A stretch of 64,000 nucleotides of DNA from Bacteroidota bacterium (lineage in GTDB: Bacteria > Bacteroidota > Ignavibacteria > Palsa-1295). The notes under the pieces were generated by a model, which was given only the letters and a program-made list of their open reading frames with translations, did no database searches and was not told the DNA's origin. A program made the position numbers and the translations under genes. The stretch spans positions 450,510 to 514,509 of the forward strand of contig JAJPIO010000009.1 in NCBI GenBank assembly GCA_021324735.1, read 5' to 3'. Positions 10,521 through 34,312 of this stretch are shown piece after piece; the stretch's first letter is position 1, and the number at the start of each line of letters is the position of its first letter.

Positions 10521-13499
10521 CTAGTCCACAGGTAAACCCAATTCTTTTCGCAAAAAGAAAGCAGTATGACTTCCGGACTTACTGAATCGATTTGCAAGAT
10601 CCTCCGGCGTTCCTTGATCGACAATACGTCCACCGCCGGAGCCGCCTTCGGGTCCAAGATCGACGACCCAGTCAGCCATTTTTATTACATCGAGGTTATG
10701 TTCAATAACTACTACGGTATTGCCTCGTGCTCGTAATTCGAGGAGCACGGATAAAAGCTGCTTGATATCTTCGAAGTGAAGTCCGGTCGTTGGTTCGTCG
10801 AGAATGTAGAGTGTTTTACCAGTCGCTACTTTTGAAAGTTCAGTCGCTAGTTTAACGCGCTGTGCTTCACCGCCGGAGAGTGTCGGTGCTTGCTGTCCTA
10901 AACGAATATATCCAAGCCCAACGGCTGAAAGCGTTGACAGCTTTCGCTTAATGCGTGGAATTTCCGAGAAAAATTCTTCCGCTTCTGTAACGCTCATTGC
11001 GAGTACATCGGCAATGGACTTGCCCTTGTAATGCACTTCGAGCGTCTCACGATTATATCGTTTACCGCGACACACATCGCAGGTGACGTACACATCGGGC
11101 AGGAAATTCATCTCGATCTTTTTGACGCCATCACCTTCACATGCTTCGCAGCGTCCGCTCTTAACGTTGAAAGAGAACCGGCCTACCTTATAACCGCGAA
11201 TGTTTGATTCTGGTAAAGAAGCAAAGAAATCTCGAATGTATGTGAACAGCCCGGTATAGGTTGCTGGATTAGAGCGCGGGGTACGGCCAATAGGCGATTG
11301 ATCGATCTCAATAACTTTATCGATAAGGTCGAGTCCCTCGATCTTCTTGTGAGGAAGCGGGACAACATGCGAGCTATAAAAATGCCTATTCAGGATCGGC
11401 GCTAACGTCTCATTGATAAGCGTCGATTTACCCGAACCCGATACTCCCGTGATGCAGGTAAACGTACCAAGCGGAATCGTGAGTGTGATGTTTTTGAGGT
11501 TGTTACCGGTTGCCCCTTCCAGGACGATCTCTTTTCCCTTTTTAGACTTTTGACGCTCCTTAGGAATTTCGAGCGAAGCGTTTCCCGAAAGATACCGGGC
11601 AGTAGGTGAATCCGCTCCAATGAAGAACTGGTCTGACCCGTTAGTCCCCACCGTCCCGCGATAAAAAAGCGATGGGGGACCATAAGCAACAAGCTTTCCT
11701 CCATATTCACCAGCGCGAGGCCCAATATCAGCGAGGATATCTGCCGACTCCATCATTTCACGGTCGTGCTCTACGACGACGACTGTATTGCCGAGGTCTC
11801 GAAGCTGCTCGAGGGAGTGAATAAGCCTGCGGTTATCGCGCTGGTGTAGCCCAATGCTCGGTTCGTCTAATATATAGAGCACGCCAACGAGTTGCGTGCC
11901 GATCTGTGTCGCAAGGCGAATACGCTGTGATTCACCGCCCGAAAGCGAGCGTGCCGAGCGGTCGAGCGATAAATACGATAGACCAACCTGCAACAGAAAA
12001 TCAATTCTTGGGATGATCTCACGCAAGATCGGTTCGGCAATCGTTTGCTTCATTCCATCGAATGTGAGCGAACGGAAATACTCGATAGTATTACCCAAGG
12101 ACATTGTGACGATGTCCTGAACGTTCTTGCCGGCGACGCGAATGGCCAGGTTTTCCGGCTTCAATCTTCCGCCATTGCAGACAGGACAGACATTGGAAGC
12201 CATAAACTCTTCGGCCCAACCACGCTGTGCCTCAGAACCAGATTCACCATACCAATATCGAAGCGTTTCGATGACGCCTGCCCAACGGGTTTTATACTTC
12301 GATGTTCTTCCACTATCAGAAGTCCACACGACATCCAGCTTTTCCTTGCCGGAGCCGTTCAGTAGCATGTCATAAACTTTCGGCGGAAGAGACTTTATGG
12401 GCGCTGAAAGGTCGCACTTAAAATGTTGGAATACCGCTTCCACCTGCGCCCATAGCCAATTTTTGCGCTGCTTGCCAAGAGGTATCACACCGCCCTCCGC
12501 AACTGATACGGAAGGGTCAGGAATAATTAGCTCGAGTACGAAGTCTTTTTTCTCGCCCAGCCCATGACAGGCCGGGCACGCGTTCGCAGGAGAGTTAAAA
12601 GAAAAAGTGTTTGGCTGTGGCTCTTCATAGGAACGACCACAATTCGGGCAACTATATTTTTCACTAAAGAGTACGTCTTCGGCTGGTTGGCCGGGTGGAA
12701 TGATCTCGGCACTGATCGTGCCTTTGCTCATTTTGAGCGCTGTTTCCACTGAAGCTGTGAGACGTTCGCGAACGGCGTCCTGCAGCACGAGCCGGTCGAT
12801 GACGATCTCAATCGTGTGTGCTTTATAGCGGTCGAGCTCGAGACCGTCGAAAATATCCTTTAGCTCGTGATCGATTCGAGCGCGGGTAAATCCTTGCCGT
12901 AAGACGTCACGAAAGACATCTTTGAACTGGCCCTTGCGACCACGGACCAACGGAGCATAAATAGTGATCTTTGTACCATCGGGGTGCTTGAGCAAAGCAT
13001 CAATGATCTGATCGACCGTCTGTTTGGTAACCGGTAGATTGCAATCGACGCAATACTGCGTGCCAGTCCTCGCAAAGAGGAGTCGGATGAAATCATAGAT
13101 CTCGGTTACCGTGCCGACGGTCGAGCGAGGGGTAGAGCCTATGGTCTTTTGGTCGATCGAAATAGCAGGGGAGAGCCCTTCAATGTAATCGACATCCGGG
13201 CGCTCCATCATGTCGAGAAACTGGCGGGCATACGGCGAAAGGGACTCGACATACCGCCGCTGGCCCTCGGCATAGATCGTATCGAACGCAAGCGAAGACT
13301 TCCCCGAACCGGAAATGCCGGTAATTACTACCAGCTTCTCACGAGGAATATCGACATCCAGGCCTCGAAGATTGTGGACGCGCGCTCCGCGAACCACAAT
13401 GGATTCACTATTCGAAAGGTCGAGGGCACGCGCTGGTATGCCGTTGTCCGCCACCAGTGTTTCATTCTTAGAGGTATCTTTCTTTGTTCGCTTGGCCAA
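10521..13499 (-). CDS. uvrA: Excinuclease ABC subunit A (class I UvrA)
   Basis: 992 aa. It has two ABC ATPase modules ([34 protein letters not shown] and a second Walker [11 protein letters not shown]), CxxC zinc fingers, and the signatures [12 protein letters not shown] and [12 protein letters not shown]. Confidence 0.95.
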
Positions 13500-22695: not shown

Positions 22696-23334
22696 ATGCT
22701 CGAAATTTACTTTCTTCGTCACGGTCAAACCGAATTCAGTCGCGACAACAAATTTTGCGGCTCTGCCACGGACGCTCAGCTCACTCCGCAGGGCCGCGCA
22801 ATGGGCGAGGCCTTCGCGGAATTTTATCGAGATACCCAATGGCGCGCGATCTACTCGAGTCCGCTCGAGCGCACTCGGATCACCGCCAACACGATCGCAT
22901 CCCGCTTAAACCAACAGCCGATCGTTCGTGACGGCCTGACCGAGATTGGCTACGGCAAATGGGAAGCGCGGACCGTGGATGAGGTCGACCGGTTATTCCA
23001 CGACGACTATCTTCGCTGGACGGCCGACCCGGCGTGGTATCCTCCGACCGAAGGCGAATCCGCAATTTCCGTTTCCACGCGCGCGCTCGAAGTCGTTCAG
23101 GAAATCCGCGATGATTGCCACGAAGGCAAGGTCCTCGTCGTCTCTCACAAGGCCACCATTCGCATCGTACTCTGCGCCCTGTTGGGCATCGATGTCGGGC
23201 GGTTTCGGTACCGGCTCGGATGCCCGGTGAGCTCCGTTAGCGTCGTCAGCTTTGCCGGACACGGCCCGCTCCTCGAAGTCCTGGCGGATCGGTCGCATCT
23301 TCCACAGGAGTTGCTCCAGCTCGAGGGCACCTGA
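22696..23334 (+). CDS. Histidine phosphatase (phosphoglycerate-mutase-like) family protein
   Basis: MLEIYFLRHGQTEFS is the RHG catalytic motif. YSSPLERTRITA and ...VVSHKATIR (catalytic His) are present. It is coupled to the upstream kinase. Confidence 0.85.
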   Translation: MLEIYFLRHGQTEFSRDNKFCGSATDAQLTPQGRAMGEAFAEFYRDTQWRAIYSSPLERTRITANTIASRLNQQPIVRDGLTEIGYGKWEARTVDEVDRLFHDDYLRWTADPAWYPPTEGESAISVSTRALEVVQEIRDDCHEGKVLVVSHKATIRIVLCALLGIDVGRFRYRLGCPVSSVSVVSFAGHGPLLEVLADRSHLPQELLQLEGT

Positions 23335-23667
23335 GGGATGGTGCTCGAGCCCCGGATTCCGCTGCGCTAATAAATCCCTAGATTCTGGCGTACGTACATA
23401 CGGCAGAACCTACTCAACTTTCAACGAACGATGGGGAAGCGACGATCTATCTTCAATGTGGTAGGGATCACGCACGAAGTCTAATCTCTAGATGCCTGTA
23501 CGGACAGAGGCGTGTTTGCCTGGTAGGATCGGGACCGCTTGGTTGCTTTTTTTTCGTGTCTGAGGGGCAACCAGACCCAATCTAATGTACGCAATAAGTA
23601 TATTTTTGTTTCAACTAAATGATATTCTATAGGACAAAAATCCCACTGGATTCGCTAGCCATCTATG

Positions 23668-24194
23668 TTATGCTGGTGGCCGAAATCCTATGGGACGGCG
23701 TGGCCGCTCGTCGGCAGCGATCATCTTTTTGATCGCGTCGAATACAACTTGGAAGTTCTTATCGTACTTTCTTTCCAGCTCCTCCAGTTTGCGAGCCAGT
23801 TCACGATGGGCCGTTAGCCACGTTCGCATTTGGACGAACGTTCGCATGATCGCGATATTGACATCGATAGCCTGCTTGCTGTTGAGAATTCCGGAGAGCA
23901 TGGCGATACCTTGCTCTGTGAAGGCAAAGGGAAGGTATTTCGAATGCCCCCGCGCTTTAAGGTCACAGATTGTGATCTTAAACGGTGAGACTCCTCCACA
24001 GTCAACTCGAACATAAAGTCCTATGGGAAGCGCCGCAAATGCCGCCGAACAGATTGTTTCAGGACCCGAGTTGAAACGCCGTATTATCGTGCGAGATCGG
24101 CGTCTAAAATGACGCGCTCTCCTCGAATGAAGTAAATGTGAGAGGCAATGACCTCCTCGCGAAGCGCTACGGCATGGGTAGATTGGTTTTGCAT
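23668..24194 (-). pseudogene. ORF6N (KilA-N-like) domain protein pseudogene with two in-frame stops and a +/-1 frameshift
   Basis: Hand translation of the minus strand gives MQNQSTHAVALREEVIASHIYFIRGERVILDADLAR*YGVSTRVLKQSVRRHLRRFP*DFMFELTVEESHRLRSQSVTLKRGG, then a frame switch to KYLPFAFTEQGIAMLSGILNSKQAIDVNIAIMRTFVQMRTWLTAHRELARKLEELERKYDKNFQVVFDAIKKMI. This is collinear with the Bacteroidota ORF6N-protein pattern as recalled (...IRG..V.LD.DLAELYGV.T..LNQAV.RN..RFPEDFMF.LT.EE...LRSQ......GGRRYLPYAFTEQGVAMLS.VL.S..AI.VNI.IMRAF). TAA (24084-24086) replaces the Leu codon and TAG (24021-24023) replaces the Glu codon. The frameshift is at the C5/G5 run at 23947-23951. Confidence 0.65.
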
Positions 24195-24602
24195 AGAGGA
24201 CCGAGTTTGAAAACCTCTGCAAAATTACGAAAATGTCCCTCGATTCACAGCAAGCAGAACCAGTGTTCGGACATGGCCAGCACATCCCAGCGAGCGAAGG
24301 CAAGGCCCCGAACACCATCTGGGGCCGTCCTCGAACGGCTGTTTGATCTCGTGGAGGGGAAGCAGCAGACGAGGGTGGAGGAGCGGTAGGGACGTGCCTT
24401 CGGCGCGTCCACTGTGGGGATTAGATAACGTCAGTCAACAAGATGAATTGGCGGGCAGCAGGATTTGTAAATCGCAAGGAGCGTTATGATTGAGCACGTG
24501 ACAGCATTTCGGCATTCCCCACGCTGGACGTACCGGAGGTACGTCCCTACCGACTTAGGACCAAGCCACATTAAGACGGATTAATCGTCGGAATTGTGCG
24601 CA

Positions 24603-25520
24603 TTATGTAGTACTTTGAGGAGGCTGTTTCTTTAATGGGACAGTTGCTTGTACGCGGTCATAGAGTAGCTCTTTTAAATTAGCCGGGTTAGAGTAGAAAA
24701 TGTGGCTATAAGCTTTTGTATCAAAATGGAGCTTTTCTTTTTCCTCGATCTTGCAACACCAAACCACTGGTATTCCAAGACCGAGTGCAAAGCCCGCCTC
24801 GAAATAGCAACCACCTCGCTGACCTGTGAAATCAGCTACGACCAAGGAGCTGCGTCGTATTTCAGCCATGATTTTATCATTGATATTATCATTGTGCTGA
24901 GCAGCCTTTAGCATCATGGGGCTATATCCTGCTCTTTCGAGTGCAGGCTTAATACCGTTCGCCCAAACATCATCCATACTATCATCAAACCACATCGCCA
25001 CAAACGCTTGGTTTCCGAGCGGCGTTGTTTCCCGCAAATGTACTGCTCTGGCCCAACCGCTAAGTGTTGGCAAGAACTGTTCAACATAGCCACTCCCTCC
25101 CTCCAGTTCGAGGTAGCCCAACTCCGCCGCCTTATTCAGCCAATACCCCAACTCGTTCGGATCACAAGCGACCCAGATGGGGTATAGTATTTCTTCATCA
25201 AGAACGAACCGCTGATCCATCCGCTCAAGGCCGTCATAAAGGGTTCTAATGACGTTATCAATGGCTTCGAACAAGTTCGATGGCCTTCGAACCATACTTG
25301 CGATTTGCTCCTGCCCCTCAGTCTGTATTTCTATCCTTCGGCCGTTGTCCCATGCGAGGCGAGTCGCTGCGCTTAAAAGATAGCCAGCAACTTTTAATTC
25401 GCTGTGATATGCTTCTGGCGTGATGACGTACTGTCCGCATGTTCGGCACTTCATGCCGTAGGCCTCTCTCCCGCTAATCTCGCCACCCTCGGCTTCTTTT
25501 CCACAAAGTTTACAATTCAT
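24603..25520 (-). CDS. Gene B of a candidate conflict/defense operon: N-terminal zinc ribbon plus C-terminal nucleoside 2-deoxyribosyltransferase-like (SLOG/NDT-fold) domain protein
   Basis: 305 aa. The N-terminus MNCKLCGKEAEGG...KCRTCGQYV carries CxxC...CxxC. The C-terminal roughly 130 aa (AFVAMWFDDS...IMAEIRRSSLVVADFTGQRGGCYFEAGFALGLGIPVVW) match the NDT/DNPH1-fold pattern: hydrophobic beta1 before a Gly-rich turn, then D..G.....E.G.A.A.GKPV with the catalytic Glu. The central roughly 100 aa were not recognised. GC is about 42-45 %, lower than flanking DNA. Confidence 0.55.
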   Translation of the reverse strand: MNCKLCGKEAEGGEISGREAYGMKCRTCGQYVITPEAYHSELKVAGYLLSAATRLAWDNGRRIEIQTEGQEQIASMVRRPSNLFEAIDNVIRTLYDGLERMDQRFVLDEEILYPIWVACDPNELGYWLNKAAELGYLELEGGSGYVEQFLPTLSGWARAVHLRETTPLGNQAFVAMWFDDSMDDVWANGIKPALERAGYSPMMLKAAQHNDNINDKIMAEIRRSSLVVADFTGQRGGCYFEAGFALGLGIPVVWCCKIEEKEKLHFDTKAYSHIFYSNPANLKELLYDRVQATVPLKKQPPQSTT

Positions 25521-25578
25521 TTTACGTCAATCGTTAAGATAGGGTGAATCTCAATTCCGCTTTCGTCGTGCCGCCAAC

Positions 25579-26580
25579 CTACACGGTTTCCTGGGCGCTT
25601 GGCTCGGGTTGCTGATTGCCTTGTAAACGCTGAACATATCTGAGCTTCTTCTCAATTTCGCAATAAGCATTACGAATTCTAGTTTCTTCGCAACCTAGTT
25701 CGATTAGCGCATCAATCGTCGCCTGTAATCGGTTTTCCGCCGATTGGTGCTCGATTATACTCGCCCAAAAGTGATGTGGCGTTGCTGAAGCAAGTACCGA
25801 TTCATAATGCAAGAAAGTAAATGCTTCGGCTGACTCAGCTAACTCCTCGACTACTTTTAGGCACCGTTCCGCACATTCCGTTTTCAGACGAGAATTGAAA
25901 TCCCCAAAGACCGTCCATTCTCTTGCTAGGATGCGTCTCTGCTCTTCCTGAAACCATGTGTGAAAGCCCTCGATCTTAGCCTGATACTCGGTGAAGATGT
26001 CTTTCACGTTCAAGGGTTGATTTTGCTTCTGTAGAAAGCTCCGCGCAGATGCCTTCCAGGCGTAGCCCTCAAGAAGCTTTTTTGGAATGAGTTGCACCTG
26101 GATAATCAGACCGTCAGGGTTAAAAATATAATTAGTATTTAATTCAGGCGGTCGATAATGCACAAAGTAATCTCGAAGATCATGCATGAATCGTATCAAT
26201 TCATCTTTCGCCAGCTCATCCTTTCGTCGCTCGTAATCCGGCATCAACGTTGACCCATGCTCACGATATAGGTTCCTTGTGTGATCAGCTAAAGTTTTGA
26301 CAGCAGCTAAGTAATTGAAAATCAATAATACAATATTTTCTCTAAAAGCCAGTCCCCAAACTTTTTGCTGATTTGTGTGAAATTCCAGAAATCTCTGAGG
26401 GTTGGTGAAGTCTTCGATTGCCTTTTGCAGCATGAAATAATTTCTATCGACAAGCTTATATAAAATGTTAAGTCGAAGGCTGTTTTCAACACTCGCGACC
26501 TCTTTGCTTGCCATTCTTTCCCTATAAAGCGCCGACACCCCTTCAGTGTGCAAGATTGTTTGTCCTTCGTGAATATTCAT
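25579..26580 (-). CDS. Gene A of the candidate conflict/defense operon: helical hypothetical protein (possible HEPN/Abi-like)
   Basis: 333 aa, predicted mostly alpha-helical. It contains TRNLYREHG (an Rx5H arrangement, compatible with a HEPN motif) and many conserved-looking aromatics. GC is about 35-40 %, clearly lower than neighbouring housekeeping genes at 55-60 %. It is first in a two-gene minus-strand operon with gene B across a 58-bp gap. No family assignment is possible without a search. Confidence 0.45.
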   Translation of the reverse strand: MNIHEGQTILHTEGVSALYRERMASKEVASVENSLRLNILYKLVDRNYFMLQKAIEDFTNPQRFLEFHTNQQKVWGLAFRENIVLLIFNYLAAVKTLADHTRNLYREHGSTLMPDYERRKDELAKDELIRFMHDLRDYFVHYRPPELNTNYIFNPDGLIIQVQLIPKKLLEGYAWKASARSFLQKQNQPLNVKDIFTEYQAKIEGFHTWFQEEQRRILAREWTVFGDFNSRLKTECAERCLKVVEELAESAEAFTFLHYESVLASATPHHFWASIIEHQSAENRLQATIDALIELGCEETRIRNAYCEIEKKLRYVQRLQGNQQPEPSAQETV

Positions 26581-26961
26581 GCTCGGCCAGTCAAGCGCTA
26601 CTTATTGCTTTCGCACAAGTGTGCGGGATACATTGAATGAAATCACCTTCAGGGTCGAAGAGTTGGATGATCGCTCACCCTTGAGGAACATTATATAAAC
26701 CGGTCGGCAAATTTCGGAGTTCGCACAATTATTAGAGTAGGTATGGAGTAGTTGCCGCCAATACAAAGACGCCTCCGATCGAGACAGCCTCATTTCGTAG
26801 GTCCTATTCGAATTTGCAATAGGTGTTTGCTGGGTTTGTCGCGGAAGATGCAGCGTTCAGTTTGCCATGTCCGCCCCCCGGGATGCCATCTGTTTTGCCC
26901 TAAAGCGGAATGAACTCAATTGCATCGAAGATGAGTTAGGCGAACCAGTACGATCCCCACA

Positions 26962-27552
26962 TTGCCGCCCACGATATTCAAGATGACCTTTCAGGAATAC
27001 CTTAGTTATTTCAATCAGTCGCTAACTTCGCTTAATACGACCGAGATCGGTCAATTTCTCGATCTGCTGGTCGATGCCTATGAGAACGACCGTACCGTGT
27101 TCGTCATCGGAAACGGTGGCAGCGCGGCCAATGCGTCGCATTTTGCCAATGACCTGGCGAAAGGTACGCTCCGCTCGATGGACCAGCCGAAGCGCCTACG
27201 GGCATTATCGCTGACCGATAACGTCGCGCTCATGACCGCGTATGGTAATGATGAAGGCTACGCGACGATCTTCGAGCAGCAATTGCGGACCTATGCTCGT
27301 CCCGGCGATATTGTCGTTGCGATCTCGGGCTCGGGTAATAGCCCGAATGTGATCTCCGCGATCGAGTGGGCCAATGCGAACGGTCTTCACACCGTAGGGG
27401 TCACCGGTTTTGCAGGCGGCAAACTCAAGCAGATCGCCTCGACGACGGTCCACGTCCCGCTCAATGATATGTGCACCTCCGAAAGCGTGCACTCGGTCAT
27501 TTTCCATTATGTCGCGATCGAATTACCGAAGCGACTGTATAAAGAATCGTAG
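26962..27552 (+). CDS. gmhA: SIS-domain phosphoheptose isomerase (D-sedoheptulose 7-phosphate isomerase, GmhA-like)
   Basis: VFVIGNGGSAANASHFANDLAKG and DIVVAISGSGNSPNVISA are SIS-domain motifs. Length is about 190 aa. An alternative start MTFQEYL lies at 26983. Confidence 0.8.
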   Translation: MPPTIFKMTFQEYLSYFNQSLTSLNTTEIGQFLDLLVDAYENDRTVFVIGNGGSAANASHFANDLAKGTLRSMDQPKRLRALSLTDNVALMTAYGNDEGYATIFEQQLRTYARPGDIVVAISGSGNSPNVISAIEWANANGLHTVGVTGFAGGKLKQIASTTVHVPLNDMCTSESVHSVIFHYVAIELPKRLYKES

Positions 27553-27720
27553 CCGTGACCTTTAGGTCACGGCGAATTGAGGATGCGTCTGTAGCCGTAA
27601 CATTTATGTTACGGCGAATTGAGGATGTGCACCATGTTATTGAAACCATGTCCATGGCCGGCGGTGCGTTTCGCCGTGACCTGAAGGTCACGGCTACGAA
27701 TCACGGCTACGAAATCACGG
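27549..27720. repeat. Cluster 1 of REP-like self-complementary 22-bp hairpin repeats (three copies) with conserved flanks
   Basis: GCCGTGACCTTTAGGTCACGGC is at 27551-27572, GCCGTAACATTTATGTTACGGC at 27593-27614 and GCCGTGACCTGAAGGTCACGGC at 27672-27693. Each has 9-10-bp perfect arms. The conserved flanking string cgaattgaggatg.g..ccatgtt.ttgaaaccatgt.catggc.g.cggtgcgtttc and the trailing ggctacgaa(a)tcacg motif (tandem) are shared with cluster 2. Confidence 0.8.
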
Positions 27721-27726
27721 AATCTA

Positions 27727-27939
27727 CTATCTCCCGTTATTTGCTGCTAAAGGATTGGAATAGCTGAAGGAGCGTAGGTCAGCGCGGGAGGATGCGTGTT
27801 CCATCGTAATGGAGATAAGATTTCCCTGATGGTCGTACTCCGCAAGGGTGTTCTCATCAAGATCGCGCGTGCTTTCAGCATCCGCTGATGCGAATTCTAC
27901 AAGCAACGTGTCGGTGTCTTGAAAGTATGTGACTTTCAT
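27727..27939 (-). CDS. DUF2283-family protein (putative antitoxin of the DUF4258/DUF2283 pair)
   Basis: 70 aa. MKVTYFQDTDTLLVEFASADAESTRDLDENTLAEYDHQGNLISITMEHAS is the canonical DUF2283 pattern (MKITYD.E.D.LYI.L). Confidence 0.7.
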   Translation of the reverse strand: MKVTYFQDTDTLLVEFASADAESTRDLDENTLAEYDHQGNLISITMEHASSRADLRSFSYSNPLAANNGR

Positions 27940-27958
27940 CGCTTAGAGGAGATATGGG

Positions 27959-28201
27959 TCAATCTGGCTTGCGGAATGACCGATCGAAAAAGGCATTATG
28001 TACGGTCTCTCCATCAGGCAGGATAACAACCCTAAGCCATTTATTGTTTGCCTCGGAAATCCTGGCCCATCGTCGAATTCGGCCGTCCGATTGAATGGTT
28101 TCCCATTCTGGATTCATCATAACTCGCTGAATCCATTCAACTTCGATCCAATCGCGATCGGGAGCCGCATGTCGGTACTTGAAATATTCAGTGAATTTCA
28201 C
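27959..28201 (-). CDS. DUF4258-family protein (putative RelE/ParE-fold toxin)
   Basis: 80 aa. ...ETIQSDGRIRRWARISEANNKWLRVVILPDGETVHNAFFDRSF matches the DUF4258 C-terminal HNAFFDR motif. It lies immediately upstream of the DUF2283 gene on the same strand with a 19-bp gap. Confidence 0.7.
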   Translation of the reverse strand: MKFTEYFKYRHAAPDRDWIEVEWIQRVMMNPEWETIQSDGRIRRWARISEANNKWLRVVILPDGETVHNAFFDRSFRKPD

Positions 28202-30346: not shown

Positions 30347-31294
30347 TTATTTTACAGGTTTTGAACTATTGAAAAATCGGATGTTCGCATCGATGCCCTG
30401 AAGGCGAATTTGCTCGCTCAGTTTGCCAAGCGATGTTAGCGCGCTATCGAGCCGCATCGCGAAGCTGGTATCGCGGGTGAGGCGGTACATGAATGTGTTC
30501 TCCCGCCCGGCGTTTATAAGTAGGCTGTCTAATCGGCCCAGCGAACGACGAGCATCGGCGATAGCCCGCGAGCCGGAATCCACAAACACTCGAAGCCCCG
30601 GTCTGTTCTCCGCAATGATCGAAGAAAGTTGACGCATCGTGGAGTCCGCCTGAGAAAGCGCTCGTGAGAGCGTTGGCCCATTCTGGGTAAGCAACGCATT
30701 GACCCGTCCTGCGGTACCATCCAGGCGCAGAAGAGCGCCATCGGCAACGTCCAACGTGTGGTTCAACTTGGTCTTAAATCCATCCCCTTCGAGGACGCTG
30801 TTTAAAGACGTAAATAAAGTATCGGTCTTACCGGTGATCGATGCCAGTGTGCCGGAAAGGGATGTCACCATTCCCACGAGCGTACTAATGTCGCCATTAT
30901 TGTTGCCAGGGATCATGGTCCCCGTAGGTAGCGGTTCTGAAGCACTGCCGGGGGTTAACTCAACTTTCTTTCCGCCCATGAGCTCGAGCATGGAAATGGA
31001 GGCGGAAGCATCCCGACGAAGATCGACGTGTTTCGAGAACCCCATCGTTACGACGACGCTCGATTGACGAAGCTCAATACCTTCGACGGTCCCTAATTTA
31101 ACGCCGTTCACCGTCACCGGATCGCCTTTTTCCAGACCGCCCGCACTTAGGAATACCGCTTTATGGGTTTCAGCCTCGCCCCCAAAGCCCCATCCTTTAG
31201 CCCACCCGATACCGATCAGCAGGAGAGTAATGCCGGCAAGTACGGTGAGCCCAACCTTAAAATCTGTTCGTTCCTCTTTAGTCACTGAGTGCAA
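30347..31294 (-). CDS. MCE-domain protein (MlaD-like lipid-transport component)
   Basis: An N-terminal TM helix (VGLTVLAGITLLLIGIGWA) precedes an MCE domain (HKAVFLSAGGLEKGDPVTVNGVKLGTVEGIEL...SVVVTM). A long helical C-terminal region follows. Confidence 0.75.
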   Translation of the reverse strand: MHSVTKEERTDFKVGLTVLAGITLLLIGIGWAKGWGFGGEAETHKAVFLSAGGLEKGDPVTVNGVKLGTVEGIELRQSSVVVTMGFSKHVDLRRDASASISMLELMGGKKVELTPGSASEPLPTGTMIPGNNNGDISTLVGMVTSLSGTLASITGKTDTLFTSLNSVLEGDGFKTKLNHTLDVADGALLRLDGTAGRVNALLTQNGPTLSRALSQADSTMRQLSSIIAENRPGLRVFVDSGSRAIADARRSLGRLDSLLINAGRENTFMYRLTRDTSFAMRLDSALTSLGKLSEQIRLQGIDANIRFFNSSKPVK

Positions 31295-34200
31295 AGTTAC
31301 GGACTTTCAGGCAAACTAAAGTTGATACGATATGATTTTTACGAGGTTCAGCATATTTCCGAAGAGATAATAAGCCAGTATTACGTGCCGTCAGCCCCAG
31401 CTCGAAATAAACCGAAGACCAGCGATACAGCGAAAAATTCGCCATCTTTAGCCGCACCTCAACCCAACGGAGCGTCTCCGGGATCGAATTTGCCATCCCA
31501 GAAGCGTCCCATTTCGGTCCGTGGTGCTCGTCTGCATAATCTGAAAAATATTTCACTCGATCTTGCTCGAAATAAATTTCACGTCTTTACCGGGGTAAGC
31601 GGTTCTGGCAAGTCATCGATGGCCTTCGACACGCTCTATGCAGAAGGGCAGCGTAGGTACGTAGAGAGCCTTTCGGTTTATGCTCGGCAGTTCCTGGAAA
31701 GAATGCCGAAGCCGGAAGTGGACTCGATAACCGGTATCAGCCCGGCCGTAGCCATCGAGCAGAAGACACTCACTCGAAATCCGCGTTCGACCGTCGGGAC
31801 GACGACCGAGATATACGATTATCTCCGGTTGCTCTTTGCGAGAGTGGGTCACACCTATTGCGTGCGGTGCGGTCGGCTCGTTCGAAAGGATACTCCACAA
31901 ACCGTACTTCAAGCGATTGCTGAGCGTGCAAAGGAAAGCCAGAAATTCTACATTCTTTTCCCGATGCATCGCCACGAGAAGCGGACGATGGACGAGGAAT
32001 GGAATAACCTGCGCTCCCAAGGATTTTCGCGACTCGTAATGGCTGGCGAGGAGCGTATACTCGATCTTTCGGAAGAGAACCCGAAGCAACTGGAATCTTC
32101 AAACGTGAGGATCCTCGTTGACCGCCTCATCTGGAAATCGAATGATGAAGCGCTTCAATCGCGTATTGCTGATTCCATCGAGGCGGCTTTCAACGAAGGC
32201 GCCGGACGAGCAATCATTGCTTACTTAGATGGCAACGGCGAGACGGCGGAAGAATTGTTCTCAGAGCATTTCGAGTGTGCAACCGACGGCCTGCCTTATG
32301 AAGAGCCCGAACCGAGATTATTCTCCTTCAACAATCCGTTCGGCGCGTGCCCCGAATGCCAGGGGTTTGGCCGCGCGATGGGTATCGATCCCGATCTCGT
32401 AATTCCCGATCCGAGCCGCTCGATCCGCACCGGCGCGATCGTCTGCTGGAATGGACCGAAGTTCAGCGAGTATTGGCGAGAGTTGATACTTATTGCCAGG
32501 AAGGCCGACGTTAACGTCGATCTTTCATACTCTTCGCTTACCGAGCGGGAAAGGAAGATCGTTTGGGAAGGCTTTGAAGGATTTAAAGGCATCGATGGCT
32601 TCTTCGAAGAATTGGAGAAGAAGACCTACAAGCTACATTACCGTGTGATGCTCTCGCGATTCCGTGGCTACACGACGTGCCCGAAGTGTCATGGTTCTCG
32701 TCTCCGTCCTGCGGCATTGAATGTTCGTGTTGCCGGCAAGACGCTGCACGACGTCGTTTGCATGACGATCGCGGAAGCTCGCAATTTCTTCGAGTCCCTT
32801 TCGCTGACGGAGTATGAAATGACGGTCGCGGCTCGCATCATCGATGAACTTCGAAAGCGTACCCGATATCTGGATGAAGTTGGACTGAGCTATTTAACAC
32901 TCGATCGGCTTTCGAATACATTATCAGGAGGCGAATCCCAGCGAATCAACCTCGCCACTTCACTCGGTAGTGCGCTTACCGGGGCACTCTATGTGCTGGA
33001 CGAGCCGAGCATCGGACTTCATCCGCGCGATACCGACAAGCTTCTTAGAATTCTGAAGAGCGTTCGTGACTTAGGAAATACGGTCGTGGTGGTGGAGCAT
33101 GATGAAGAAGTGATACGCTCGGCCGATGAATTAGTTGATTTTGGTCCGCTGGCTGGTGAACTGGGTGGAGAGCTAATGTATCAGGGACCACCGGCAGAAC
33201 TGGAAAAGATTCGAAACGGGAGATCGATCACCGGTAAATATTTGCAGGGTGAGCGCGCTATTCCAATACCAGCGAAGCGGCGTCGAGTCGATCTTAGCTA
33301 TGCCATCGCGGTAAAAGGTGCAACGGCTAATAATCTTAAGTCGATCGATGTGAGATTCCCGTTAGAGTCGTTTGTAGCGGTCACCGGTGTATCCGGCTCG
33401 GGCAAATCGACGCTGGTACACTCGATCCTGTACTCCGGACTAAAAAAATTACGCGGCGAGAGTGTAGGTCCGGTAGGATCGTATCGCGAATTAAAGGGAG
33501 AGGACCTCGTCAATCACATCGAGCTTGTGGACCAATCGCCGATCGGCCGCACACCGCGTTCGAACCCAGCAACGTACGTAAAGGTCTTCGATCAGATCCG
33601 CGAAGCATTTAGCCGAACCGTGTATGCAAAGCAGCGCGGCTGGGCGCCGGGCTACTTTTCCTTTAATATTCCCGGAGGCCGCTGCGAAACCTGCCAGGGC
33701 GAAGGATATGTAACGGTCGAGATGCAATTCCTTGCTGATATGTATCTCGAATGCGATACGTGCGGCGGAAAGCGCTATAAGCAAGAAGTGCTCGATGCGA
33801 CGCTTAACGGCAAGAATATCGTCGACGTGCTCAGCATGACGGTTAGCGAAGCACTATCATTCTTCTCCGAGCACGACCGTATAAAAGCGAGATTACAGGT
33901 ACTGGATGATGTCGGCTTAGGCTATATTCGATTAGGCCAGCCCGCAACCACCCTCTCAGGCGGCGAAGCGCAACGTGTAAAGCTTGCATCACATCTCGCC
34001 GATCAGACCGAAGAGCGCACGCTCTTTATCTTCGATGAACCAACGACCGGACTTCATTTCGATGACATCGCTAAGCTGTTAAAGGCACTAAATGCGTTGG
34101 TCGATCGCGGGCACTCTGTCATTGCGATCGAGCATAATCTCGATGTGATCAAAGCGGCCGATTGGGTGATCGACCTCGGGCCGGAAGCGGGCGATGGTGG

Positions 34201-34312
34201 AGGTGAATTAGTCGGGGAAGGGACACCCGAAGCGCTTACCAAGATCGAACGCAGCTATACGGGCCACTATTTACGTCCTGTTCTCGAACGCGCAAAACGA
34301 TTAGCATCGTGA
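31289..34312 (+). CDS. UvrA paralog (second excinuclease ABC subunit A-like ABC ATPase)
   Basis: ISVRGARLHNLKNISLD...[34 protein letters not shown], the second Walker [24 protein letters not shown] and [12 protein letters not shown] are all present. The first CxxC of the middle zinc finger is replaced (FECATDG...CPECQGFG). The ATG at 31289 overlaps the divergent mlaD start, so the real start is probably internal (GTG 31385 or TTG near 31490). Confidence 0.85.
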   Translation: MQSYGLSGKLKLIRYDFYEVQHISEEIISQYYVPSAPARNKPKTSDTAKNSPSLAAPQPNGASPGSNLPSQKRPISVRGARLHNLKNISLDLARNKFHVFTGVSGSGKSSMAFDTLYAEGQRRYVESLSVYARQFLERMPKPEVDSITGISPAVAIEQKTLTRNPRSTVGTTTEIYDYLRLLFARVGHTYCVRCGRLVRKDTPQTVLQAIAERAKESQKFYILFPMHRHEKRTMDEEWNNLRSQGFSRLVMAGEERILDLSEENPKQLESSNVRILVDRLIWKSNDEALQSRIADSIEAAFNEGAGRAIIAYLDGNGETAEELFSEHFECATDGLPYEEPEPRLFSFNNPFGACPECQGFGRAMGIDPDLVIPDPSRSIRTGAIVCWNGPKFSEYWRELILIARKADVNVDLSYSSLTERERKIVWEGFEGFKGIDGFFEELEKKTYKLHYRVMLSRFRGYTTCPKCHGSRLRPAALNVRVAGKTLHDVVCMTIAEARNFFESLSLTEYEMTVAARIIDELRKRTRYLDEVGLSYLTLDRLSNTLSGGESQRINLATSLGSALTGALYVLDEPSIGLHPRDTDKLLRILKSVRDLGNTVVVVEHDEEVIRSADELVDFGPLAGELGGELMYQGPPAELEKIRNGRSITGKYLQGERAIPIPAKRRRVDLSYAIAVKGATANNLKSIDVRFPLESFVAVTGVSGSGKSTLVHSILYSGLKKLRGESVGPVGSYRELKGEDLVNHIELVDQSPIGRTPRSNPATYVKVFDQIREAFSRTVYAKQRGWAPGYFSFNIPGGRCETCQGEGYVTVEMQFLADMYLECDTCGGKRYKQEVLDATLNGKNIVDVLSMTVSEALSFFSEHDRIKARLQVLDDVGLGYIRLGQPATTLSGGEAQRVKLASHLADQTEERTLFIFDEPTTGLHFDDIAKLLKALNALVDRGHSVIAIEHNLDVIKAADWVIDLGPEAGDGGGELVGEGTPEALTKIERSYTGHYLRPVLERAKRLAS

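Follow-up and report, generated by a model that had tools for sequence, protein, structure and literature searches.

The window analysed here, a stretch of 64,000 nucleotides from a Bacteroidota contig, contains a conserved run of genes in which the neighbouring His_Phos and SIS genes are separated by an insertion of about 3.6 kb. The insertion holds three minus-strand genes: p333, p305 and, 408 bp beyond p305, the remnant of a gene of the ORF6N family. Proteins of this family are small, bind DNA and form part of the phage 'Bro network'; in them the ORF6N domain is followed by a helical tail. The remnant, its lesions and the open reading frame reported over it are as follows.

23668..24194, minus strand: ORF6N-family pseudogene, whole remnant of 527 nt, 175 aa once repaired; recognized by a Pfam ORF6N match and a gap-free alignment with homologues
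24084..24086, minus strand: in-frame TAA at codon 37, in place of the conserved Leu of DLAxLYG; from translation and alignments
24021..24023, minus strand: in-frame TAG, codon 58, in place of the mostly-Glu residue of RFPEDF; from translation and alignment
23947..23951, minus strand: G5 run (C5 on the plus strand), one base fewer than in the family, with a −1 frame thereafter
23668..23949, minus strand: C-terminal half (end of the ORF6N domain and helical tail), undamaged in its own frame, with its stop TAA at 23670–23668
23668..24318, minus strand: 216-aa ORF (P0242) from public gene callers, about 120 out-of-frame residues followed by the true C-terminal 95

The remnant and its three lesions

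Read codon by codon on the minus strand, the remnant starts with ATG at 24194–24192 and continues with MQNQSTHAVALREEVIASHIYFIRGERVILDADLAR. The first lesion stands in the context DLAR-TAA(24086–24084)-YGV, with YGVSTRVLKQSVRRHLRRFP as the text after the TAA, and the second in the context RRFP-TAG(24023–24021)-DFMFEL, with DFMFELTVEESHRLRSQSVTLKRGG after the TAG. At the G5 run (23951–23947) the family text shifts one base back, so that TLKRGG is followed by HSKYLPFAFTEQG; the family spacing RGxHSKY is recovered across this join when one base is put back, and alignment with intact homologues identifies the frame change inside TLKRGxHSKY as the loss of one base. The reading after the shift is HSKYLPFAFTEQGIAMLSGILNS ... 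IGFRPPA, ending at the TAA at 23670–23668. A sequence-only reading of this DNA had already placed the TAA, the TAG and the G5 run, and all four of its coordinates are exact on minus-strand retranslation.

Masking both stops and restoring one base gives a repaired reading of 175 aa that matches Pfam ORF6N (PF10543) with 107.9 bits (E = 3.2e-31) over profile positions 2–85 of 86, where the gathering threshold is 27.8 bits. The full-length ORF6N-type protein that had been recovered by hand translation is therefore real after repair, and the family resemblance, which a profile search might have dissolved, is strongly upheld by it. The repaired reading has 8000 homologues in a protein collection of 5.8 billion clusters, and it also matches a PHROG anti-repressor family (E = 1.4e-27). 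The closest homologues, among the matches listed with a computed identity, are 59–68% identical, and the intact ones align without gaps. The wider family is present in viral contigs, with 217 stretches in IMG/VR and a best identity of 60%.

These alignments place each lesion. The TAA column holds Leu in 13 and Met in 1 of 14 homologues, and Leu in at least 90% of a set of 112. The TAG column varies, being mostly Glu but also Pro, Ser, Leu or Ile. The earlier claim that both stops fall on conserved residues thus stands for the Leu, whereas the Glu of RFPEDF is less conserved than had been remembered. The simplest single changes would be TTA to TAA at the first stop and GAG to TAG at the second, suggesting TTA and GAG as the ancestral codons. 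A comparison with intact orthologues had been proposed; no intact orthologue above 70% identity was found in the collection of 5.8 billion clusters.

Apart from its lesions the remnant is a well-preserved member of its family. It keeps all 38 columns that are invariant in the alignment with 14 homologues, and both the profile and these residues assign it to ORF6N; its frame is interrupted. The remnant is a real pseudogene of a very common phage-type DNA-binding family, for which the label 'phage-type gene family' is fair.

Assembly error, recoding and phase variation

The lesions could in principle be artefacts of assembly or sequencing in an intact gene, as one of them lies in a homopolymer and the window possibly comes from a long (835-kb) contig. 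We retrieved other assemblies of the locus through the neighbouring His_Phos and SIS proteins, obtaining a JGI contig (3300027965), a MEGAHIT-style ENA contig (ERZ27279670) and two Logan contigs (SRR5579883). All are identical to the window across the remnant and carry the TAA, the TAG and the G5 run. The sole difference over 20.6 kb is base 25687 inside p333, which is T in the window and A in the JGI, ENA and Logan sequences; these assemblies may share raw reads, and only this single-nucleotide difference shows strict independence from the window. It distinguishes the NCBI protein variant P0243 from P0241.

One Logan contig runs unbroken from 23503 to 27700, across the gene, and as a unitig-style sequence it makes it less likely that an intact allele is common in that sample. 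The Logan contigs of SRR5579883 end at 23467 and resume at 23503, leaving 35 nt of the spacer uncovered just downstream of His_Phos, on the left side of the remnant; this gap could reflect low coverage or a variant at the left edge of the insertion.

Two of the lesions are moreover substitutions, not homopolymer errors; a G5 run is too short to be prone to error in short reads; and among the matches listed no intact protein above 68% identity appears in the 5.8 billion clusters, which derive from the same sources. We therefore regard an intact gene obscured by errors as very improbable, and a sequencing error as the cause of the shift, which the sequence-only reading had allowed, finds no backing in the public assemblies.

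Expression of the gene by recoding would combine read-through or reassignment of the stops with a programmed −1 frameshift at the G run. Such a scheme would fit the full retention of conserved residues despite three lesions, and the frame change is indeed a −1 shift at a run of G. Stop codon usage in the window is, however, ordinary: of the 47 ORFs of 150 aa or more that do not overlap one another (together 86% of the window) 23 end in TAA, 12 in TAG and 12 in TGA, so that TAA and TAG terminate 35 of the 47, including p305 (TAA) and p333 (TAG). The only tRNAs in the window are Gly-GCC, Arg-TCT and His-GTG, with no suppressor among them, and the shift site CGC GGG GGC is non-canonical, lacking a slippery X XXY YYZ heptamer. 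Recoding would also have to serve two different stops for two different residues (Leu and Glu), and three separate events within 250 nt would be unprecedented. We give this explanation hardly any weight. An alternative genetic code was considered separately and rejected, as all three stops are used normally and no suppressor tRNA is present.

A phase-variation switch at the G run is just as implausible. The shift does sit in a homopolymer, but the run is only 5 nt long and of equal length in all assemblies, and with two stop codons upstream the protein would stay broken even if the frame were restored. A phase-variable contingency gene has a long, variable homopolymer whose change of length restores the ORF, and the remnant has none. 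Taken together, the shared lesions, the ordinary stop usage and the lack of a suppressor tRNA support genuine decay over recoding, assembly error and phase variation, as the sequence-only reading had proposed in setting decay against recoding.

The accessory insertion and its surroundings

The insertion, approximated by the interval between His_Phos and SIS, and its two other genes lie as follows.

23335..26961, strand not applicable: lineage-specific insertion of about 3.6 kb at the His_Phos/SIS junction; from synteny with relatives and a GC content lower than that of the flanks
24603..25520, minus strand: p305, zinc ribbon and TIR-like / nucleoside-2-deoxyribosyltransferase-like protein; PADLOC TIR effector match, E = 1.6e-13
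25579..26580, minus strand: p333, member of a widespread family without a curated model; from HMMER relatives

In each of the 11 related loci that span this site, the genes for HIT, GHMP kinase, His_Phos and SIS follow one another directly, and His_Phos lies 60–400 bp from SIS, against 3.6 kb in the window. The GC content of the insertion is 41–51% and that of the flanks 55–61%. The neighbouring GHMP kinase is 84–90% identical to those of Kapaibacterium or Ignavibacteriota-type metagenome-assembled genomes. The island that had been proposed from the sequence is thus a real accessory insertion in a conserved gene cluster of sugar-nucleotide type, as the adjacency of His_Phos and SIS in all 11 related genomes bears out.

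In the spacer between His_Phos and SIS the four closest relatives have a small conserved minus-strand ORF (about 60–80 aa, MQPSAS..RLLRLQNAATQ..) and also a conserved AACGAAAGGCCAA motif. In the relatives' loci the ORF and the motif belong to these stretches.

L004, 2927–3315: spacer ORF (minus strand) and motif
L005, 11627–12004: spacer ORF (minus strand) and motif
L006, 11698–12103: spacer ORF (minus strand) and motif
L007, 11696–12090: spacer ORF (minus strand) and motif

Neither the ORF nor the motif occurs in the window or in more distant relatives, and the flanks of the insertion have no DNA similarity to the relatives' His_Phos–SIS spacers beyond the start of the SIS coding sequence. 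Synteny with the relatives stops just after SIS. Because the relatives' small ORF is absent here and synteny ends after SIS, the His_Phos–SIS junction is a variable spot. Just past SIS, at 27727–28201 on the minus strand, a DUF2283 protein of 70 aa and a neighbouring ORF of 80 aa have the appearance of a toxin–antitoxin-type pair. DapD, PsbP_2 and MlaD were not found near SIS in the relatives. Two large, divergent UvrA-like genes (ABC_tran / UvrA_DNA-bind; 10521–13499, minus strand, and 31289–34312, plus strand), about 18 kb apart, bracket the region.

p305 has an N-terminal zinc ribbon and a C-terminal domain that reaches 26.6 bits in Pfam, below threshold, and matches phrog_16139 with E = 3.6e-39. 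It looks intact, because homologues of 300–310 aa, members of a large family, cover 96–99% of it. Its closest relative lies amid toxin–antitoxin genes, with no ORF6N gene. An exhaustive HMMER search finds 1088 relatives of p333 at 25–39% identity, where a word-based search returns p333 alone; the family is diverse and has RLLHNFV..DHTR and LRxYxxHY among its conserved motifs, and p333 has no match in Pfam or PADLOC. The AF2 model of p333, a confident one (pLDDT 91.5), consists of long helices and a β-hairpin and has no significant PDB match, the best being ClyA-type toxins (E of about 0.03, TM of at most 0.2). No NCBIfam model covers any protein of the insertion. p305 lies 58 bp downstream of p333, and the two genes possibly form a defence-type operon; this pairing was not found at 80 other p305-type loci.

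An imperfect inverted repeat (24384–24552) separates the p305 stop from the start of the ORF6N gene; its 37-nt arms are 84% complementary and 95 nt apart. Each arm forms a GC-rich hairpin of its own. The repeat has a fold z-score of −4.55, is unique in the window and is without an Rfam match. It could be a terminator of p305 or a MITE-like relic. More generally, no structured RNA was matched in Rfam at E ≤ 1 over 23300–27000.

The sequence-only reading had taken ORF6N genes to mark mobile elements in Bacteroidota and the remnant to be a fossil of the element by which the island arrived. Neither idea was supported. The families found among the genes of the insertion are ORF6N, TIR-like / nucleoside-deoxyribosyltransferase or none, with no integrase, transposase or relaxase. 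We found no convincing terminal direct or inverted repeats and no target-site duplication at the insertion, and no tRNA adjoins it, the nearest being about 15 kb away. HMM searches found ORF6N or p333-type genes at 0 of 80 p305-type loci (477 kb, metagenomic), and p305-type or p333-type genes at 0 of 87 ORF6N loci (853 kb). Five intact close homologues of the remnant, located on long contigs, all stand alone: each is flanked by housekeeping or metabolic genes, and neither mobility nor phage genes occur within 7 kb of it. The absence of an integrase, attachment repeats and a tRNA, the lack of co-occurrence and the solitary homologues together fail to bear out the fossil, and with five of five close relatives being solitary chromosomal genes an ORF6N match by itself should not be taken to indicate an integrated mobile element.

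A recurring ORF6N–p305–p333 module was also considered and rejected, as no locus joins any two of the three families.

Timing of decay, the paralogue and comparison with known systems

Aligned with 112 intact homologues, the remnant departs at 2 of 53 columns that are conserved in at least 95% of sequences, where intact members depart at 0.75 on average and 21% of them at two or more. At the 80 columns conserved in at least 80% it departs at 5 (mean of intact members, 4.25). Because there is no excess drift besides the three lesions, the inactivation would be recent on the scale of family divergence. In a neutral simulation on the repaired gene a median of 43–52 substitutions accumulates before two nonsense codons have arisen, and the probability of finding at most one of the 55 conserved residues altered at that point is 5–6%. 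The gene therefore has slightly more disabling hits than drift predicts, a surplus that luck could account for, as could selection for the first knock-out, and that we judge not significant.

An intact ORF6N protein, P0016 (183 aa), is 63% identical to the repaired remnant (79% positives) over 172 residues without gaps. NCBI records P0016 on a contig of 835,316 bp, and likewise places the 216-aa ORF, p305 and an NCBI variant of p333 on 835,316 bp. The genome thus very probably keeps an intact ORF6N paralogue, apparently on the same 835,316-bp contig, with which the gene at the remnant may have been redundant.

We consider it highly likely that a once-functional ORF6N gene in this small accessory insertion was recently inactivated by three independent mutations. 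Two of these would be nonsense substitutions and the third the loss of one G from a short run of G, after which a full-length product would no longer be possible. The loss was probably tolerated, given the intact paralogue elsewhere on the same contig.

The undamaged C-terminal half raises the question of whether part of the gene is still expressed, either through the 216-aa ORF, which starts at an ATG at 24318, or from an internal start, giving a chimeric or truncated product whose helical half could pair with the paralogue and modulate it. The frame that carries the C-terminal half is open for 250 codons. For the 81 codons overlapping the ORF6N N terminus, the probability of such openness is about 3% (31 of 1196 windows taken from local genes; 0.0295 by synonymous resampling), and none of 50 distinct homologue genes shares it. 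The C-terminal half is also very similar to that of P0016, and gene callers do report the ORF. Such a product, if real, would explain both the long open alternative frame and the missing drift despite three lesions.

Against this, the first 120 residues of the 216-aa ORF are an out-of-frame, Cys/Arg/Ser-rich text with no family match, and the whole ORF scores 23 bits against ORF6N, below threshold. Promoter and terminator signals are at chance level in a consensus scan, the openness statistic is post hoc, and the protein cluster contains this one sequence only. We regard a truncated or chimeric product as improbable; most likely the 216-aa ORF is an annotation artefact and its open frame coincidental. 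For annotation, the public 216-aa 'hypothetical protein' is really the out-of-frame artefact of an ORF6N pseudogene. Decay of this kind is ordinary biology, with nothing to surprise the specialist and of use mainly for annotation correction, and the locus documents a small accessory insertion in a conserved cluster of a poorly studied, Kapaibacterium- or Ignavibacteriota-like lineage.

KilA-N and ORF6N are both part of one network of DNA-binding modules shuffled in phages (PMC10111431), and the sequence-only reading had called the gene KilA-N-like. This label was not reproduced. The repaired remnant has no match to Pfam KilA-N (PF04383) at E ≤ 0.01, and no APSES/KilA-N chain occurs among the 50 best PDB matches that Foldseek gives for the P0016 model, a weak test in which all matches have E ≥ 0.3 and the AF2 model has a pLDDT of 76. 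The best of these non-significant matches are Ski/Dachshund and MarR/MerR winged-helix-type domains, and no sequence relatives were found in the PDB. The gene is therefore filed as ORF6N and not as KilA-N.

The repaired protein matches three models of the PADLOC defence candidate PDC-S05, the best being PDLC04856 (E = 8.2e-57, 189.8 bits), and the remnant adjoins a TIR-like gene. In E. coli B, one PDC-S05 representative is reported in a preprint to have lowered the plating of T7 and T5 by a factor of about 1000 (bioRxiv 10.1101/2024.09.26.614923). That tested representative is described with a Virulence_RhuM domain, whereas none was detected in the repaired remnant, and the copy in the remnant is non-functional.

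The remnant can also be compared with the intact members of the ORF6N family itself. P0016 has a helical tail nearly identical to that of the remnant, but it is intact, occupies a different locus between the genes for a Por_Secre_tail protein and a glycosyl hydrolase, and is too divergent for the two to be recent duplicates. From the family as a whole the remnant differs by its two stops and its frameshift, and the intact relatives nearest to it are chromosomal and solitary, not parts of phages or satellites. It shares with that family the full-length profile match and the architecture of the homologues of about 170–185 aa, a domain and a helical tail ending in ..IGF...
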